A DNA stretch of 64,000 nt, from the sequence record NC_019505.1, one strand, 5' to 3'. Shown here one piece after another: positions 53,855-61,054 of the stretch. The notes beneath the pieces were generated by a model. That model worked only from the letters and a program-made list of their open reading frames with translations, was not told the origin of the DNA and did not search any database. The position numbers were made by a program, and so were the translations under genes. The number at the start of each line of letters is the position of its first letter. Position 1 is the stretch's first letter. The stretch is from Escherichia phage wV7.

Positions 53855-54819
53855 TGTATTCTTTAGAGGAATTTAATAATCAAGCAATAAACGCAGACTT
53901 CCAACGTAATAATATGTTCAGCTGTGTTTTTGCTACAACTCCATCAACTAAAAGCTCATCGTTAATAAGCTCAATTAGTAACTTTGCTTATAATAACTTG
54001 GGTCTAAATTCAGATTGGTTGGGATTAACTCAAGGTGATATTAATCAGGGAATTACTACGCTAATTACCGCTGGCACACAAAAACTGATAAGAAAATCAG
54101 GGGTTAGTAAATATCTTATTGGTGCCATGAGTCAACGTACAGTTCAAAGTTTATTAGGCTCATTTACAGTTGGTACATATTTAATTGACTTCTTTAACAT
54201 GGCATATAACTCATCTGGATTGATGATATATTCTGTAAAAATGCCAGAGAATAGATTATCCTATGAAACTGACTGGAACTATAATTCTCCTAATATTCGT
54301 ATAACTGGAAGAGAATTAGACCCTTTGGTTATTTCATTTAGAATGGATTCAGAAGCTTGTAACTATCGTGCAATGCAAGACTGGGTTAACGCTGTTCAAG
54401 ACCCAGTAACTGGATTGCGTGCTTTACCGCAAGATGTCGAGGCAGATATTCAGGTCAATCTTCATTCTCGCAATGGATTACCACATACTGCGGTGATGTT
54501 CACTGGCTGTATTCCAATATCTGTGAGTGCTCCTGAGTTATCATATGATGGAGATAACCAAATAACTACATTTGATGTTACTTTCGCTTATAGAGTCATG
54601 CAGGCTGGAGCAGTTGATAGACAAGCTGCCCTTGAATGGCTTGAATCTGCTACTATAAATGGTATTCAAAGCGTTCTCGGAAATAGTGGAGGTGTTACTG
54701 GACTATCTAATTCGCTTTCACGACTTAGTAGATTAGGGGGAACTGCAGGAAGCATTTCAAATATTAATACTATGACAGGAATTGTCAATTCGCAAAGTAA
54801 AATATTAGGAGCAATATAA
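53854..54819 (+). CDS. 54: gp54 baseplate tail tube initiator
   Basis: 321 aa, TAATG overlap with gene 48. Confidence 0.9.
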   Translation: MYSLEEFNNQAINADFQRNNMFSCVFATTPSTKSSSLISSISNFAYNNLGLNSDWLGLTQGDINQGITTLITAGTQKLIRKSGVSKYLIGAMSQRTVQSLLGSFTVGTYLIDFFNMAYNSSGLMIYSVKMPENRLSYETDWNYNSPNIRITGRELDPLVISFRMDSEACNYRAMQDWVNAVQDPVTGLRALPQDVEADIQVNLHSRNGLPHTAVMFTGCIPISVSAPELSYDGDNQITTFDVTFAYRVMQAGAVDRQAALEWLESATINGIQSVLGNSGGVTGLSNSLSRLSRLGGTAGSISNINTMTGIVNSQSKILGAI

Positions 54820-54822
54820 CAA

Positions 54823-54852
54823 TGGGGACCGAAAGGTCCCCATATTTTTATT
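54823..54852 (+). terminator. rho-independent terminator after gene 54 (also closes the convergent minus-strand operon)
   Basis: UGGGGACC-GAAA-GGUCCCCA hairpin followed by UAUUUUUAUUU. Confidence 0.6.
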
Positions 54853-55138
54853 TACGGAATGAAATAAAAGCAGCAACTGAAGCAACAGAGGTTTCTTCAA
54901 TATAAACCTCAATTTTTACCGGAGCTTCTGACTCAAATTTACCTGTTACTACACCTTGGAAAATACTTTCAGTCTGTTCTGGCTTTGAAAAATTTTCAGA
55001 AGGAAAAATTCCGAACTTTTTATCTGTTCCAAAAATTTTGATAAATTCATCGTAAACTGCTTCATTGAAAGCGTTATCAGCGGGAATAACGCCTTCAACG
55101 ACGAGTTCTTGACCTAAAAAGCGCAAAGAAGATTTCAT
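54848..55138 (-). CDS. hypothetical protein (alt.-3-like)
   Basis: 96 aa ATG-start ORF downstream of the Alt-like genes. Confidence 0.5.
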   Translation of the reverse strand: MKSSLRFLGQELVVEGVIPADNAFNEAVYDEFIKIFGTDKKFGIFPSENFSKPEQTESIFQGVVTGKFESEAPVKIEVYIEETSVASVAAFISFRK

Positions 55139-55198
55139 TTTGTGTTCCTCATGTTATGTCAGTAAGACTACTATAACACAACATGAGGGACTTGTAAA

Positions 55199-57256
55199 CT
55201 ACATTTTGAACTTTTTAGACATTCCGTTGATGTTAACCAAAGAAGCTAAGATTTGAGAAACTTCGTTTTCCTCTTCTTTTGATTCTTCTACAAGGAATTG
55301 ATTAAATCCAGCCATTGGACGAACTTCACCAGTTTCCATTAGATGGTCGCCATCATATACTGATTCTTCTAATTGTTCAGAAGGAGGAACGATTGTACCT
55401 TCGATTAGATACTTGTTATAAGCAGTTTCTTTCATAAAGTAAGTACTTACTTTATTAATCTTCAGTAAAATTCCACGTGGTAGAATAACTTCAGCTTCTG
55501 ATGGAAATCCTGACAAATGACCTGGAACGATAACTTTAACTCGTTCAGCTCCTTTAATTACCATACCCACGCTAGTTTCAGCATCTTCATTAGCATATGT
55601 AGAATGACTACCCATATGCATCAAATCTTCTGCATCAACGGAACCTTCTCCTTCACCAGAAAATACTGCTCCGGAATTATCTAAGGCCATATAATTTTTA
55701 CCATACTCACCAAAGATATTTGGTTTAAGTGATGTCGATACGAAGTTCTTGAAATAGAACATTTTATTTTCAATGTTATGACGCAAAGTTTTAAAAGTAA
55801 CTTCTTGTCCACGGTAAAGTGTAGTTCCTGGAGGAAGAACTGAACCTTTAGCGAATGCAGAATCCAGCGTCTCAATATGTTTAATAGCTCGTTCCATATA
55901 TTCTTCACGTGTAGAATCAGGTTTACCTAAAAGGAATGAGTTCATTTCAACATACGAATCTGCGCAATAATCTTCAATTACATCAGACTCAGCCTGAGTC
56001 AATCCTTTTGGAGTTACTTCAGTGCTTGCATATTCATACGCCTGAGCAGCGGATTCATCAATTAATTTATAAATGCCATTCATGACAAATTGAATAATAG
56101 CTGTCTTTTCATCTGGCGTAGCTTTAGAACCTTTAACTAAATCATTGACAATTTTCTTAATAACATCAAAGCTATTAGAAATATTAATGTCAGCAAGATC
56201 GCTTAAAATTTTATCAGTTTTATAATCAAAAAATTCTTTATTCTTTAAATATTCTTGAGAACTTTGATATGTTATATCGCTCTGCAACTTGATAGATGGA
56301 TCACGTAAACGTGCATGGGCTAATGCAATATGATTTCGGAAGCTTTCTAGTTCATAATCGTTAGATTTAAAACGAGAAGCACTTCTCATACCACCGATAG
56401 CTCCTTTGCTGAAGTTTGAACCAATCTGAATAACGCCAGAGTTCATTGGTCCTTCTGCTTTATATACCGGAACTTTAGATTCAAACTCTTGATATTTCTT
56501 AGCAGCGAAGCTATCACCCTGAAGTGAAGCATCAACAGTAGAATATTGAGCTTGTGCTGCTAATCGACGGCTAATTTTAGTTTTCTGAATAACAGCTTGA
56601 TCCGTACGCTTATCATTTTCTAAAGCAATAGAAGCAGCAACTGCGACAGCTTTAGGAACAGCATTACCTGTTTTAACGTCTACATAAACATCACCAACCT
56701 TTGATTCAACTTTTGTGAATAACTCAGTTGAAATAGGAGGTACACCTGGAATGTCTTCTAAATTGGCATTTTTACGGTAAACCATAATATATGCATATTT
56801 CTTATCATAGTCCCAGATTTCCTTTAAAAGAACATATCGACCTGCTCCTTTAGTACGTACTAAACGGTCAGCAATAACTTGCATTTGACGAGCAGCGCCG
56901 TTTGTTTTACTTTTTAGTACGCGGAATAGGCATGCATCAATTTTATACTGTTTCATTGTTTGAAGAGCAGTATCAAAAACCGCATTAATGACGCCAATTG
57001 GATTTCCACCCAAGTTTTTAAGCTTAACTAACGATAATTTCTCGTTGACGCCTATCATTACGATATGCATCATTTTGTCGCCTGGCTTAACGTTTTTATT
57101 CGTATCACCGCCAGAGGTGTATGTACAAAATCTAAATCCAGGAAGCACGCTTTCTTCACCGGCTTGAATAGCAAAAATTTGTGGTATTTTATGCTTAGGA
57201 TTTAAGTTAACAACCGGCGCCGAAGCGCCGTCAAATAATTCTGTAATAAGTTCCAT
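55199..57256 (-). CDS. Alt-like ADP-ribosyltransferase paralog
   Basis: 685 aa; N-terminus MELITELFD... and C-terminal region with Arg / S-T-S / E-x-E triad (YRGQ, FVSTSL, SEAEVILPRG); about half the residues are shared with the adjacent 697 aa gene. Confidence 0.8.
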   Translation of the reverse strand: MELITELFDGASAPVVNLNPKHKIPQIFAIQAGEESVLPGFRFCTYTSGGDTNKNVKPGDKMMHIVMIGVNEKLSLVKLKNLGGNPIGVINAVFDTALQTMKQYKIDACLFRVLKSKTNGAARQMQVIADRLVRTKGAGRYVLLKEIWDYDKKYAYIMVYRKNANLEDIPGVPPISTELFTKVESKVGDVYVDVKTGNAVPKAVAVAASIALENDKRTDQAVIQKTKISRRLAAQAQYSTVDASLQGDSFAAKKYQEFESKVPVYKAEGPMNSGVIQIGSNFSKGAIGGMRSASRFKSNDYELESFRNHIALAHARLRDPSIKLQSDITYQSSQEYLKNKEFFDYKTDKILSDLADINISNSFDVIKKIVNDLVKGSKATPDEKTAIIQFVMNGIYKLIDESAAQAYEYASTEVTPKGLTQAESDVIEDYCADSYVEMNSFLLGKPDSTREEYMERAIKHIETLDSAFAKGSVLPPGTTLYRGQEVTFKTLRHNIENKMFYFKNFVSTSLKPNIFGEYGKNYMALDNSGAVFSGEGEGSVDAEDLMHMGSHSTYANEDAETSVGMVIKGAERVKVIVPGHLSGFPSEAEVILPRGILLKINKVSTYFMKETAYNKYLIEGTIVPPSEQLEESVYDGDHLMETGEVRPMAGFNQFLVEESKEEENEVSQILASLVNINGMSKKFKM

Positions 57257-57259
57257 GAT

Positions 57260-59353
57260 TTATCCTTGAACGAACTTGTAAGGCATGTTTGTAATATCTA
57301 TGCAAGACGCAATAATTCCAAGAGATGATTCTACTTTCTGTTTAACATTTGATGAAACAAATGATGCAAAGTCAACTCTGTCTTCTATTTCAATATCACC
57401 TGTCATTGCAACCAATTCACCAGTTTCCATTAAATGGTCTCCGTCATAGATTACCGATTCGGTGAGCTCTTCCGTGGTCATAACTTCAGCTTGAATGAGT
57501 TTTGTATTATTAGATGTTGTTCCGTCATTATTAGAAGCATCAGTTATTTTATTAACTTTGACCATCAATCCACGCGGTAGAATAACTTCAGCTTCTGTTG
57601 CTATTCCGAGACTTCCTGGATATACAACATTAACTTTATGAGCTCCATCAATTGCCCATCCTATTTGAACTTTAACGTATTCAGGATTTTCTTTATACGC
57701 TCTTATTTCGTTTGGATTAATAGTTATTCCTTCTTCATTTTTATCAACTGTTAATTCATTGCGAGCTTCTGGTTCTAAAAGACCAATACCAGCATGTGTG
57801 ATTCCAAAACGTCCAAAAATGATAGGAGTTAAAGAAGTAGATACAAAATTTCTGAAGTAGAACACTTTATTTTTAACTAACGCTTCATATATAGGAGCAG
57901 TCATACTTTGAGCACGATAAACTGTGATGCCTTCCGGTATGCGGTCACCATTTTCAAAAGCTGAATCTAAGTTATTTATAGCAGATTCAATTTCTTTTTC
58001 ACTCATTACATCATATCGTTCTGGATTGTAACGACCTAAAAGAAGATTATTGATGTCAGTATATCCTGAACCGCAATATTCTCTAATGCCACGCTTTTGT
58101 GATGGAGTATATTTAGAACCATCGCGGGCAATAGTAATATCAATCATTGGACCAGCACCAATTCCAGAAAAACTGTAAATCATTCGTTTGAGGAATTTAG
58201 TTTTTGCTGCGTTCCAGGAATTTTTAGTTATTTCTTCCCAGACTTCATCTGGTTGTCCTTTACGATTTTTATTATGATTAGCAAGCCATTTATCTTTATA
58301 ATCTTCAAAGAATTGATTTACAGCTGCTGCGTATTTCTCTAAACATTTTATTGAAGTAGTTGGTTCATTTTTAATTGCATTAAAAATTACTTCTTTAATT
58401 TTTTCTGAAACTTCACCGACTTGACTCATTGGAAAGAATTTATAATCATAGTGAAGTTCATCTGCCGTTCCTTCAGCAATAATTTTTGCTGCCTTTGTTT
58501 TAGAAGCTAATGAATTAATTCCAATTTTCATTTCTTCTGCTTCGGGAATTAAAGGTGCAGTAGCTGGTTTATTAAAATTAGCTGCTGTAGATTCATACTT
58601 CTGGAATAATTCACTTTCAAATCTAGAAGATTCCAATGACTGACTTTGTGCAATTGCTCTACGGGAAATTTTAACTTTAACGATTACGGCTTGGTCAGAA
58701 CGTTTATCATTTTCTTGTGCAATAGATGCAGCAATTGCCTCATTTTTGGTTACTTGAGCTCCAGTATCTTTATTGATATAAACATCACCGACCTTCGATT
58801 CAACTTTAGTAAAGAGCTCGGTGCTAATTTCTGGAACTCCTGGAATGTCTTCTAGTGATACATTTTTACGATGTATAAGAATATATGCATACTTTTTATC
58901 GTAATCCCAGAGTTCCTTAAGAAGGACGTATCTGCCACCTGAACGACTACGGATAAGTCTATCAGCAATAACTTGAATTTGTCGAGCTTGGCCAGCAGTT
59001 TTAGACTTAAGAATACGAAGCATACAAGCATCAATTTTATATTGACGCATTGTTTGCATTGCAACAGTAAAAACTGAATTGATATAATTAATTGGGCTTG
59101 GACCAAGACCTTTTAATTTAGCAATTGAACCTTTAGCAGTTAATGTAAAAGGAACAATGTGCATCATTTTGTCGCCCATTTTTAAATCGCGATTAGTATC
59201 ACCTCCAGATGTATATGTACATAAACGAAAGCCTGGTTGTTCAATTGCATCATCAACATGAACTGAAAAAATTTGTGGTATTTTCTTCTTTGGATTTAAG
59301 TTTGTAATCGGAAGAGTAGTATCTTCGTCAAATAATTCTGTAATAAGTTCCAT
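57260..59353 (-). CDS. alt: Alt ADP-ribosyltransferase (head-packaged, injected)
   Basis: 697 aa from ATG at 59353 (SD GAGAGG 5 nt upstream; an in-frame ATG at 59356 is also possible); Arg / S-T-S / E-x-E motifs (YRAQ, FVSTSL, TEAEVILPRG); late promoter upstream. Confidence 0.8.
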   Translation of the reverse strand: MELITELFDEDTTLPITNLNPKKKIPQIFSVHVDDAIEQPGFRLCTYTSGGDTNRDLKMGDKMMHIVPFTLTAKGSIAKLKGLGPSPINYINSVFTVAMQTMRQYKIDACMLRILKSKTAGQARQIQVIADRLIRSRSGGRYVLLKELWDYDKKYAYILIHRKNVSLEDIPGVPEISTELFTKVESKVGDVYINKDTGAQVTKNEAIAASIAQENDKRSDQAVIVKVKISRRAIAQSQSLESSRFESELFQKYESTAANFNKPATAPLIPEAEEMKIGINSLASKTKAAKIIAEGTADELHYDYKFFPMSQVGEVSEKIKEVIFNAIKNEPTTSIKCLEKYAAAVNQFFEDYKDKWLANHNKNRKGQPDEVWEEITKNSWNAAKTKFLKRMIYSFSGIGAGPMIDITIARDGSKYTPSQKRGIREYCGSGYTDINNLLLGRYNPERYDVMSEKEIESAINNLDSAFENGDRIPEGITVYRAQSMTAPIYEALVKNKVFYFRNFVSTSLTPIIFGRFGITHAGIGLLEPEARNELTVDKNEEGITINPNEIRAYKENPEYVKVQIGWAIDGAHKVNVVYPGSLGIATEAEVILPRGLMVKVNKITDASNNDGTTSNNTKLIQAEVMTTEELTESVIYDGDHLMETGELVAMTGDIEIEDRVDFASFVSSNVKQKVESSLGIIASCIDITNMPYKFVQG

Positions 59354-59376
59354 CATAGCCTCTCTAGTGTTTATTC

Positions 59377-59384
59377 TATTTATA
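59377..59384 (-). promoter_or_regulatory. late promoter TATAAATA (minus strand) for alt
   Basis: Exact TATAAATA on minus strand about 21-24 nt upstream of the alt ATG, preceded by a UUCG hairpin. Confidence 0.5.
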
Positions 59385-59405
59385 AAATTAAAGGCCCGAA
59401 GGCCT

Positions 59406-59594
59406 TTAGTAATCTAGTGGTAAGAGAGTACGATATATTTCAAACTTTGGTCCTTTTTCATAGGCATCAAATGTTTCTGTAAATTTATTGTAAGCATATG
59501 CATCTACAAATTCGAGAATGACTTGTGATACAGAAGTAGAAACATCTCCACCTTCTTTTTGAGCAATGACAATTGTTTCTAAGTAAGCTTTCAT
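59406..59594 (-). CDS. hypothetical protein (alt.1-like)
   Basis: 62 aa ORF whose ATG overlaps the ligase stop. Confidence 0.45.
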   Translation of the reverse strand: MKAYLETIVIAQKEGGDVSTSVSQVILEFVDAYAYNKFTETFDAYEKGPKFEIYRTLLPLDY

Positions 59595-61054
59595 AAACCA
59601 GTTACCTCATGAAAATCGCCAAATACATCCTCGAATGTATTAGCTTTAGTTTTATCTTCACGTAAACGAATCGCAATCGGAAGAAATAATTTAACGTAAT
59701 CAGTGCGGCCATCAGATTTTAACCAACCGTTGCATTCGCACTCTAGAATTTTTCCAATATAATAATTTTGGTTTTCCATAATGCGAGTACGGTCAAGTTC
59801 ATGCGATTTTACACCAGCTTTATCTTTTAAGCCTGAACCAGCATTTACTTTAATTTTTCCACACTCTGACTCAAGAATAAATCCACCCGCTTTAGTAGGG
59901 TCTTTACGGTGAGGATAAATTCCTACAATTTTTAAATCAACATCAATTACTTCTTTAAATTTATAAAGATTTTTTGAACGAGCATTTTCCCATAATCCAT
60001 CGATATTTTTGAGAATAATACCTTCAAGACCTTGGTCAATATACTTTTTATAAATTACCTTAGCTTCATCTAGGTTATTTACTACCTGGTTTTCAATTAA
60101 AATTACTTTATCATAACCTGATGTCATTTGTTCTAGTTTAGAAAAACGTACATCATATTTCAAACGAAATGCAGGAAGACCGTATATTTCTACCAACGGG
60201 ACATAATCCCAGACCTGAAACTTCATGCATTGAGCTTCTTTTTCAGAAATGGTTCCCTTTAAAGATTTATTAGCGATTCCATTAGAAGTAGTACGTGATT
60301 CAGCTACTTCGGCGAATTCTTTAGCTTTACTAATTTCAGGATAAGCATCAAAAAGAAAATCTAGGCCTTCTGGTTCCTTTTCAACTTGCTCATGGTATAC
60401 CAATTCGCCATCAATTAACACACCTTCTGGATGAATCTGGCGAGCTTCTGCAGTCATTTTGATTAACTCTTCCTTGAGAAGATCTAATCCTAGATATTCA
60501 TTACCAGCTCGTGATAAAAGACGAACATCATCTAATTCATCACCTCTGACTTCAGCAAAGCACCGAGCTCCATCAGCTTTTAACTGCGCAAAAGCTGGAA
60601 ACTTGATATTCTTACTAATGCCTTTTTCATCATAAGAACTTGCCAGCATTTGAGGTTGTTCAGGAATTAAACCTGGCCAAACTTTGTTTGCAATAGATAC
60701 TGAAGCACCGCATTCAAGGTCTCGCATCATCACCCGACGCAAAACTTCAACATCATCTTTTTTACCGTCAGCAATATATCCAGTTAATTCCTCAATTGCC
60801 GCATTTCCGGTCAATTTCCGAGTAGCTAACGTGAATTCAATGAAGTCAAGCATATCGGTAAGAGTCAACATTCCAAAACTCTGGGTAGCAATACCAGGTT
60901 TAGGCCATTTCTTGATATAATACTGTAACCCACGAGAATAAGTCAGACGATATACTCGTTTAAGCAATTCATTATCTTTATTCTTTTCAAGAATTGCTTG
61001 CTTCTGCTTAGTTGAACCAATAGATGCTATTTCGTTCAGAATTTTAAGAATCAT
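59591..61054 (-). CDS. 30: ATP-dependent DNA ligase (gp30)
   Basis: 487 aa with adenylation motif KADGAR and further nucleotidyltransferase motifs. Confidence 0.95.
   Translation of the reverse strand: MILKILNEIASIGSTKQKQAILEKNKDNELLKRVYRLTYSRGLQYYIKKWPKPGIATQSFGMLTLTDMLDFIEFTLATRKLTGNAAIEELTGYIADGKKDDVEVLRRVMMRDLECGASVSIANKVWPGLIPEQPQMLASSYDEKGISKNIKFPAFAQLKADGARCFAEVRGDELDDVRLLSRAGNEYLGLDLLKEELIKMTAEARQIHPEGVLIDGELVYHEQVEKEPEGLDFLFDAYPEISKAKEFAEVAESRTTSNGIANKSLKGTISEKEAQCMKFQVWDYVPLVEIYGLPAFRLKYDVRFSKLEQMTSGYDKVILIENQVVNNLDEAKVIYKKYIDQGLEGIILKNIDGLWENARSKNLYKFKEVIDVDLKIVGIYPHRKDPTKAGGFILESECGKIKVNAGSGLKDKAGVKSHELDRTRIMENQNYYIGKILECECNGWLKSDGRTDYVKLFLPIAIRLREDKTKANTFEDVFGDFHEVTGL

Follow-up and report, generated by a model that had tools for sequence, protein, structure and literature searches.

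Alt of bacteriophage T4 is an NAD+–arginine ADP-ribosyltransferase (ART), and it is the closest described relative of the genes considered here. Its described range of host targets comprises the alpha subunit of RNA polymerase and other proteins (cited in PMC5512222, PMC10468400), about 40 copies are carried per head (Ali et al., 2017, PMC5694885), and mass spectrometry has shown that six N-terminal residues are cut off at ITE-6 and 63 C-terminal residues at LTE-619, which leaves a protein of 68.2 kDa (PMC5694885); this mass is reproduced by calculation for T4 Alt residues 7-619. T4 carries one full alt gene of 682 amino acids (aa), followed by two small genes, alt.-1 (61 aa) and alt.-2 (67 aa), which a RefSeq note describes as 'an old duplication of the first part of gene alt'. 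Here we examine the corresponding locus of Escherichia phage wV7 (NC_019505.1), of which a stretch of 64,000 nucleotides (nt), hereafter the window, was analyzed, and in which two adjacent minus-strand genes encode full-length Alt-like proteins. The upstream gene is the ortholog of T4 alt, and the sequence of the downstream gene identifies it as the equivalent of 'alt.-2' of phage RB14 and of the ancestor of T4 alt.-1/alt.-2. The gene pair is real, ordinary and already known, and it is the normal annotated state in about 400 relatives.

Duplicated alt genes have also been reported outside this group. Phages 44RR (ORF187c/188c) and RB49 (ORF183c) belong to other genera than wV7 and are likened to it by their tandem arrangement, with alt paralogs beside alt, one of them, in 44RR, a full-length duplicate of about 54% similarity (Nolan et al., 2006, PMC1524935). 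More distant kin are the C3 exoenzymes, Vis, VIP2 and the iota/CDTa/BECa toxins (PF03496), which have their catalytic fold and motifs in common with the Alt family but are secreted, use other delivery modules and share 13-19% identity, and the long insert between the S-T-S and E-x-E motifs is a feature of the Alt family. ModA and ModB of T4 are small early proteins of about 200 aa that are not packaged, have neither the N-terminal Tevenvirinae_ADPRT domain nor propeptides, and map elsewhere. They too are ARTs of the R-S-E clade and modify host proteins of transcription and translation (PMC5512222, PMC10468400). When the window was searched by tblastn and by blastn against itself, neither a third Alt-like gene nor ModA/ModB was found in its 64 kb, which contains only the two copies.

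E. coli O157 typing phage 7 (KP869105.1, genus Tequatrovirus) matches positions 54800-59650 of the window at 100% identity, and its record labels both open reading frames (ORFs) 'ADP-ribosyltransferase exoenzyme'. The neighbors follow the T4 map, with genes 29, 48 and 54 on the plus strand and, on the minus strand, the same set as in T4: alt.-3, the two Alt-like genes, alt.1, DNA ligase (gene 30) and 30.1-30.3. The original prediction had proposed tandem Alt-family paralogs of 685 and 697 aa on the minus strand, and ORFs of these lengths are present at the coordinates it gave:

57260..59353, minus strand: upstream gene, 697 aa, T4 alt ortholog with a diverged central cassette (ORFs, Pfam, phrog, alignment)
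55199..57256, minus strand: downstream gene, 685 aa, intact full-length second Alt paralog (ORFs, BLASTP, Pfam, phrog, alignment, model)

The upstream ORF as a whole runs from 57260 to 59356 and gives 698 aa from its first ATG and 697 aa from the second ATG at 59353 (ORF listing). We favor the second ATG because it is better spaced from the GAGAGG Shine-Dalgarno sequence; it yields the N-terminus MELITE and is the start used by T4 and KP869105.1. T4 Alt (P12726) occupies the same slot as the window pair, between gene 30/alt.1 and alt.-3/gene 54, and has the same late promoter, domain order, R/S-T-S/E-x-E motifs and cleavage sites for the prohead protease gp21 as the window proteins. Its identity with the upstream protein reaches 99.6% in aa 1-238 and 95.5% in the tail, but is 32% in the middle and 65% in the ART domain, and it shares only 41% with the downstream protein. 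The reading we prefer, with a probability of roughly 0.72, is that the locus forms a single late transcription unit for two old, co-expressed Alt paralogs that would both be packaged in the head, injected, and act as arginine ADP-ribosyltransferases with different targets.

Whether T4 carries the same pair had been left open in the original prediction, and the comparison gives a clear answer: T4 has alt together with a decayed remnant of the second gene. The T4 alt.-1/alt.-2 region aligns with the first 348 nt of the window's downstream gene at about 95% DNA identity and has the same junction with alt, but whereas the window gene is intact, a 1-nt deletion in an A-run of T4 produces the alt.-1 stop and the alt.-2 restart, and after the 348 nt only the final 20 nt of the downstream gene follow, joined on directly. 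The 1699 bp missing in T4 comprise the entire middle region and the ART domain, and both ends of this segment carry a short direct repeat in the intact gene:

56909..56917, minus strand: 9-bp direct repeat CTAAAAAGT, first copy, codon 114 of the downstream gene, left end of the T4 deletion
55210..55218, minus strand: 9-bp direct repeat CTAAAAAGT, second copy, codon 680, right end of the T4 deletion

The two copies of the repeat are 1699 bp apart, and the T4 junction falls on the repeat (about 7105-7113 in L002, the T4 locus). In addition, phrog_23015 (alt.-1) and phrog_15247 (alt.-2) match residues 1-56 and 62-117 of the downstream protein, and do so better than the upstream copy. The alignment, the position of the junction and the phrog matches together identify T4 alt.-1/alt.-2, at the level of sequence, as the deletion remnant of a full-length second Alt gene. 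Both window genes are thus essentially ordinary orthologs of known T4 genes, one of alt and the other, in intact form, of alt.-1/alt.-2.

The second gene is widespread. Of the 540 records that match the locus, 366 cover at least 80% of the whole 4.85-kb pair region, and at least 80% of the 1.67-kb segment missing from T4 is present in 400 of 405 records at 90-100% identity. Records with the full second gene include T2, RB14 (as alt.-2), RB51, KIT03 and HP3, and its usual label in about 400 GenBank phage records is 'Alt-like RNA polymerase ADP-ribosyltransferase'. In T2, RB14, RB51, RB68, RB18, SH7 and about 400 Tequatrovirus records we see the same gene in the same position, with no difference of substance from the window. 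The pair is therefore not novel, since it is annotated in about 400 records, the T4 annotation flags the duplication, and alt duplicates were described by Nolan et al. (2006). It is rather the reference phage T4 that is atypical at the alt locus: about 400 relatives, T2 included, carry two apparently competent Alt-family enzymes, and the biochemistry of 'alteration' all comes from the one-enzyme phage T4. Full-text literature searches found no experimental study of the second Alt copy. Studies of early host takeover, of ADP-ribosylation targets and of ART-related defense and counter-defense should allow for a second enzyme and for cassette-like alleles.

Relatedness of the two proteins is far above chance, with a full-length BLASTP match at E = 1e-165, and both match PF03496 and phrog_802, so that they are tandem paralogs of the Alt family as proposed. 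The statement that they share about half of their residues was generous, the actual figures being 41% identity and 58% positives. The described pattern of near-identical N-terminal stretches and divergent middles holds: identity is 68% in aa 1-238, where several stretches are near-identical and the first nine residues (MELITELFD) are the same in both copies, against 17% in aa 239-415, 35% in the ART domain (416-625) and 46% in the C-terminal tail. Synonymous sites are saturated in all regions, the N-terminus included, with a proportion of synonymous differences (pS) of 0.59-0.66, and this saturation dates the duplication, as far as sequence can tell, as old. Since saturation in the N-terminal part (pS 0.645) is as high as elsewhere, the likeness of the N-termini is best read as purifying selection (ratio of nonsynonymous to synonymous substitution rates, dN/dS, between the paralogs about 0.19). 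Recent gene conversion as its source is rejected in view of the same pS and of the longest exact DNA stretch common to both genes, which measures 28 nt and lies at the gene starts. This identical start, ATGGAACTTATTACAGAATTATTTGACG, at 57229-57256 and 59326-59353 on the minus strand, stands out against the saturated synonymous sites elsewhere and suggests either a nucleotide-level constraint on the translation-initiation region or micro-conversion.

The copies differ most in the helical middle, in the STS-ExE insert and in the ADP-ribosylating turn-turn (ARTT) loop before ExE, where one copy has PGHLSGFPSEAE and the other PGSLGIATEAE. In related toxins these regions contact substrates. The most economical reading of this divergence is that the two copies most likely modify different sets of host proteins.

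The second copy has nevertheless been disrupted more than once. The exact T4 deletion junction occurs in 91 records (T4 isolates, RB55, RB59, ACG-C40, HY03, SG1 and others), and in 16 metagenomic contigs (L006 3183-5248; also L007 and L008) the gene is split by an 8-bp tandem duplication, AGTTTGAA AGTTTGAA, at codon 257 into ORFs of 273 and 415 aa that correspond to the N-terminal domain and the ART. In two further loci (L003 5001-7055 and L004 5001-7061) only one alt gene, a hybrid, lies between alt.1 and alt.-3; it starts with the N-terminus of the upstream type and continues as the downstream type, and the crossovers, at about nt 540 and nt 660 in the conserved N-terminal region, are independent. 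These hybrids look like unequal recombination that collapsed the pair; both come from short-read (Logan) assemblies and could be artefacts, though the window copies share no exact stretch longer than 28 nt. Patches of excess differences in the N-terminal part of two further homologs (P0003 and P0004) suggest partial conversion. A 201-nt query spanning the T4 junction matched 1161 places in 498 records, and in many records, among them T4, queries from this locus match at another place in the genome as well; the source phage of the window has only one matching place for the locus queries, and the 64 kb hold no second copy.

Such losses could mean that the downstream copy is a redundant duplicate which contributes dosage only and drifts toward loss, with the T4 remnant showing its course. 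The independent disruptions (the 1699-bp deletion with its frameshift in 91 records, the 8-bp duplication in 16 contigs and the hybrid single-gene loci) would fit this view, as would the good growth of T4, which lacks a full second copy; under laboratory conditions even alt is dispensable. Yet about 400 records hold an intact, full-length gene, clustering at 90% protein identity places 772 sequences with the downstream copy (P0001 cluster), all catalytic and cleavage residues are invariant, the substrate-facing regions have diverged, and the synonymous saturation between the paralogs implies that the duplicate has been kept for a long time. A more diverged phage (L005), whose downstream protein is 76% identical, retains the tandem pair, and between it and the window ortholog dN/dS is 0.13 for the downstream and 0.22 for the upstream gene, with 0.03-0.08 in the N-terminal domains and 0.16-0.18 in the ART domains (0.18 in that of the downstream gene), all of them crude Nei-Gojobori estimates that are rough figures given saturated dS (>1). 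We conclude from these sequence comparisons that each Alt copy is under purifying selection and regard simple redundancy as unlikely. To judge from the genomes compared, the second copy is instead accessory, being intact in most relatives and lost or broken several times, laboratory T4 included.

Both proteins belong to the ART family by profile match. They score above the gathering cut-off of PF03496 (ADPrib_exo_Tox; 23.4 bits) with 71.7 bits for the downstream and 129.9 bits for the upstream copy, and match phrog_802, 'Alt-like RNA polymerase ADP-ribosyltransferase', over their full length (residues 1-685 and 1-696, E = 1.7e-256 and 2.6e-273); PF26846 (Tevenvirinae_ADPRT) and PF03496 are precomputed for all full-length homologs and for the genes in loci L003-L006. 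The catalytic residues were located in an alignment of 13 sequences comprising both window proteins, T4 Alt, JS10-/KM16-type proteins and metagenomic variants down to 41% identity:

57914-57916, minus strand: upstream gene R480 (13-sequence alignment)
57833-57841, minus strand: upstream gene STS, S505-T-S507 (13-sequence alignment)
57587-57595, minus strand: upstream gene EAE, E587-A-E589 (13-sequence alignment)
55811-55813, minus strand: downstream gene R482 (13-sequence alignment)
55730-55738, minus strand: downstream gene STS, S507-T-S509 (13-sequence alignment)
55490-55498, minus strand: downstream gene EAE, E587-A-E589 (13-sequence alignment)

The arginine, both STS serines and both E-x-E glutamates are invariant in the alignment, and the middle T of STS varies; the T4 Alt equivalents are R478, E574 and E576. 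Used alone as a query, the downstream sequence matched none of the PDB chains at E <= 0.01, and C3cer and BECa were reached only with a family profile; the profile alignment places the arginine on the YR, and E-x-E on the Q-x-E/E-x-E, of C3cer (4xsg) and BECa/CPILE-a. The AlphaFold model of the downstream protein (mean predicted local distance difference test score, pLDDT, 74) has R482, STS and E589 on strands 480-487, 506-509 and 589-592, and its C-terminal domain resembles Vis, C3, VIP2, CDTa and Certhrax (Foldseek E = 6e-8 to 1e-5, target-normalized TM-score, TMt, about 0.6). The downstream copy is thus predicted to adopt the ART fold, and homology suggests the same for the upstream copy. 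Careful alignment and the profile match agree with the earlier proposal that Arg/S-T-S/E-x-E are intact in both proteins, and both copies look catalytically competent. Within the R-S-E clade, ARTs specific for protein arginines are marked by an E-x-E motif whose first residue is Glu, and both enzymes, using NAD+, would mono-ADP-ribosylate arginines of host proteins. A T4 Alt mutant named 'E577A' loses ADP-ribosylation (PMC11404850). In the 682-aa RefSeq protein, encoded at L002 7455-9503, we count the two glutamates of E-M-E as 574 and 576, followed by Val at 577, and the mutated residue is almost certainly the second E-M-E glutamate, with a one-residue offset in numbering.

The leading Glu of E-x-E, together with the closest solved folds, which are those of protein-modifying toxins, and the lack of any sequence sign of nucleic-acid binding, makes it very unlikely that the downstream ART differs from T4 Alt in chemistry or substrate, be it NAD-RNA RNAylation as in ModB, modification of nucleic acids or neutralization of host defense. 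The idea draws on reports that ModB uses NAD-RNA and that Alt shows slight RNAylation in vitro (PMC10468400), that DNA- or RNA-targeting ARTs exist and that the neighboring alt.-3 can mutate to block an ART-based defense (PMC11618068), and on the strong differences between the copies in the STS-ExE insert and the ARTT loop.

The expected fate of the proteins follows T4 Alt. In each, an N-terminal propeptide of six residues appears to come first and to be followed by a conserved alpha/beta domain (about aa 12-238, PF26846), a hypervariable helical middle, a C3/VIP2-type ART domain of the R-S-E clade and an acidic C-terminal propeptide of about 55-65 residues. Predicted gp21 sites and a conserved tail motif are found in both:

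59336-59344, minus strand: upstream gene ITE-6 (read from sequence)
57458-57466, minus strand: upstream gene LTE-632 (alignment with T4 LTE-619)
57416-57448, minus strand: motif YDGDxLMETGE in the upstream C-terminal propeptide (invariant Y, D, G, D, E, G, E columns)
57239-57247, minus strand: downstream gene ITE-6 (read from sequence)
55364-55372, minus strand: downstream gene LEE-631 (alignment with T4 LTE-619)
55325..55357, minus strand: motif YDGDHLMETGE in the downstream C-terminal propeptide (invariant Y, D, G, D, E, G, E columns)

The P1 glutamates of both sites are invariant in the 13-sequence alignment. If they behave like T4 Alt, both proteins would enter the prohead core by means of the N- and C-terminal elements that they share, be cut by gp21 at ITE-6 and at the L-x-E of residue 631 or 632, and pass into the next host cell when the DNA is injected. 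Maturation is predicted to leave residues 7-631 (69.2 kDa) of the downstream and 7-632 (70.1 kDa) of the upstream copy, and removal of the propeptides raises the calculated isoelectric point from about 6 to 7.2-8.4. From residue 629 on, the downstream model has pLDDT <50, which predicts a disordered tail; the C-terminal tail is constrained (ortholog dN/dS 0.08-0.19) though it is cut off in T4 Alt maturation, which fits a targeting or tethering role. Auto-inhibition is a further candidate role for the C-terminal propeptide, which also holds a second L-x-E (LME-641/643) that could be an extra cleavage site.

Packaging and cleavage of the downstream protein are thus suggested by its retained sites and the T4 Alt analogy. 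In SH7, a two-copy phage, a virion proteome of 13 proteins in total included the product of the upstream-position gene (2 peptides, 3% coverage; PMC5238451), and peptides of the downstream copy were not among these 13 proteins. This could mean that the downstream protein is an active ART that stays unpackaged and acts late in the producing cell, where the late promoter would put it anyway, or that it is a structural part of the core whose catalysis is irrelevant, Alt having been reported as a core protein besides its enzymatic role (PMC11404850). The SH7 proteome is shallow, however, and the downstream protein has kept both gp21 sites, the identical MELITELFD and the invariant YDGDxLMETGE, with an N-terminal domain under strong constraint (dN/dS 0.03, a rough figure as above); we therefore find both versions quite unlikely and continue to favor a packaged and injected enzyme.

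In searches against predicted viral structures the N-terminal domain gave strong matches to Tevenvirinae Alt proteins and also matched large uncharacterized proteins of Erwinia, Dickeya, Vibrio, Shigella and Agrobacterium phages (E = 1e-7 to 1e-4, 12-16% identity), for some of which the annotation names a zeta-toxin, a deaminase or ParB/sulfiredoxin. The pattern would agree with a delivery module that can be reused, an idea that we offer only as a lead.

The signals around the pair suggest that both genes are made late, from one late mRNA:

59389..59408, minus strand: terminator-like hairpin (TAAAGGCCTTCGGGCCTTTA) just past the alt.1 stop (8-bp stem, 4 GC pairs, T-rich tail)
59377..59384, minus strand: T4-type late promoter TATAAATA, 21 nt 5' of the upstream-gene ATG (motif scan)
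59359..59364, minus strand: Shine-Dalgarno GAGAGG of the upstream gene (read from sequence)
57257..57268, minus strand: gene junction CAAGGATAAATC, followed by the downstream ATG at 57256-57254 (AAGGA Shine-Dalgarno inside the end of the upstream gene)

The hairpin would end the upstream early/middle transcription unit, and a terminator upstream of alt is conserved across T4-like genomes (Nolan et al., 2006, PMC1524935). The late-promoter motif occurs 23 times in the window against 9.2 expected, and in five of five loci (window, T4, L005, L006 and SH7) it begins 29-36 nt 5' of the start codon of the first alt gene. The stop-to-start gap between the two genes is 3 nt (GGA TAA ATC ATG) and the junction is identical in T4, which makes translational coupling plausible. 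The only other minus-strand TATAAATA in the pair, at 57980-57973, lies about 720 nt 5' of the downstream ATG within A-I-N-N codons; as a conserved promoter of the downstream gene it was rejected, being allele-specific and absent in L005, L006, SH7 and T4. As the original prediction had it, then, the downstream copy has no late promoter of its own, and its suggested co-transcription gains support from the layout: with one conserved late promoter before the pair, a 3-nt gap and none conserved before the second gene, the downstream gene is probably co-transcribed from the single late promoter.

The upstream gene has a history of its own, as it is a mosaic with respect to T4 alt. Its N-terminal third and its tail are close to the T4 gene (dS 0.15 and 0.07), but dS rises to about 1.3 over the middle and the ART domain:

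57600-58620, minus strand: diverged central allele of the upstream gene, about 1.1 kb including the catalytic core (compared with T4, L002 7760-8780)

The window type of this central allele is found in 334 records and the T4 type in 175. Allele type assorts independently of the presence of the second gene; G4498 and KMB26, for example, combine a T4-type alt with a full second copy.

Several points weigh against the reading of two packaged enzymes with different targets. The second copy is dispensable, as the 91 deletions, the 16 split contigs and the hybrids in two assemblies attest; its PF03496 score is the weaker of the two; its peptides did not appear among the SH7 virion proteins; the dN/dS values are rough; and the case for different targets is drawn from sequence divergence. 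For the downstream copy, packaging, injection, arginine specificity and distinct targets accordingly remain expectations, whereas its paralogy to the upstream copy, its intact catalytic and cleavage motifs and its place in the operon are observed. A more specific version of the same reading, which we hold to be possible but rather doubtful, is that the second paralog is a separate injected effector with a target of its own, perhaps a defense or stress protein and not RNA polymerase, which most natural T-even phages would deploy but which has been little studied as laboratory T4 deleted the gene. If true, the hypervariable middle/ART cassettes of both genes, swapped between otherwise near-identical phages, would be a record of an arms race over target recognition.

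The pair is followed by a 60-nt spacer and alt.-3, the last gene of the locus:

55144..55198, minus strand: spacer after the pair, with an early-type promoter TTTACA-17-TATAGT inside a strong hairpin (-23.4 kcal/mol, z = -4.33)
54848..55138, minus strand: alt.-3 ortholog, 96 aa, DUF5498, phrog_1739 (ORFs, profile match)
54822..54843, both strands: bidirectional terminator hairpin between the converging gp54 and alt.-3 (9-bp stem, 6 GC pairs)

In T4 mutants that escape the defense system CmdTAC, whose toxin is a host mRNA ADP-ribosyltransferase, Alt.-3 was in every case lengthened at its C-terminus, to 110 or 117 aa (Vassallo et al., 2024, PMC11618068). Within the spacer hairpin, the alt.-3 Shine-Dalgarno sequence is covered by the 3' arm, and the spacer sequence is conserved in T4; a transcript from the early-type promoter of the spacer starts without the 5' arm and folds with -2.2 kcal/mol. 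It may be, then, that alt.-3 is translatable from its own early mRNA and masked on read-through late alt mRNA.

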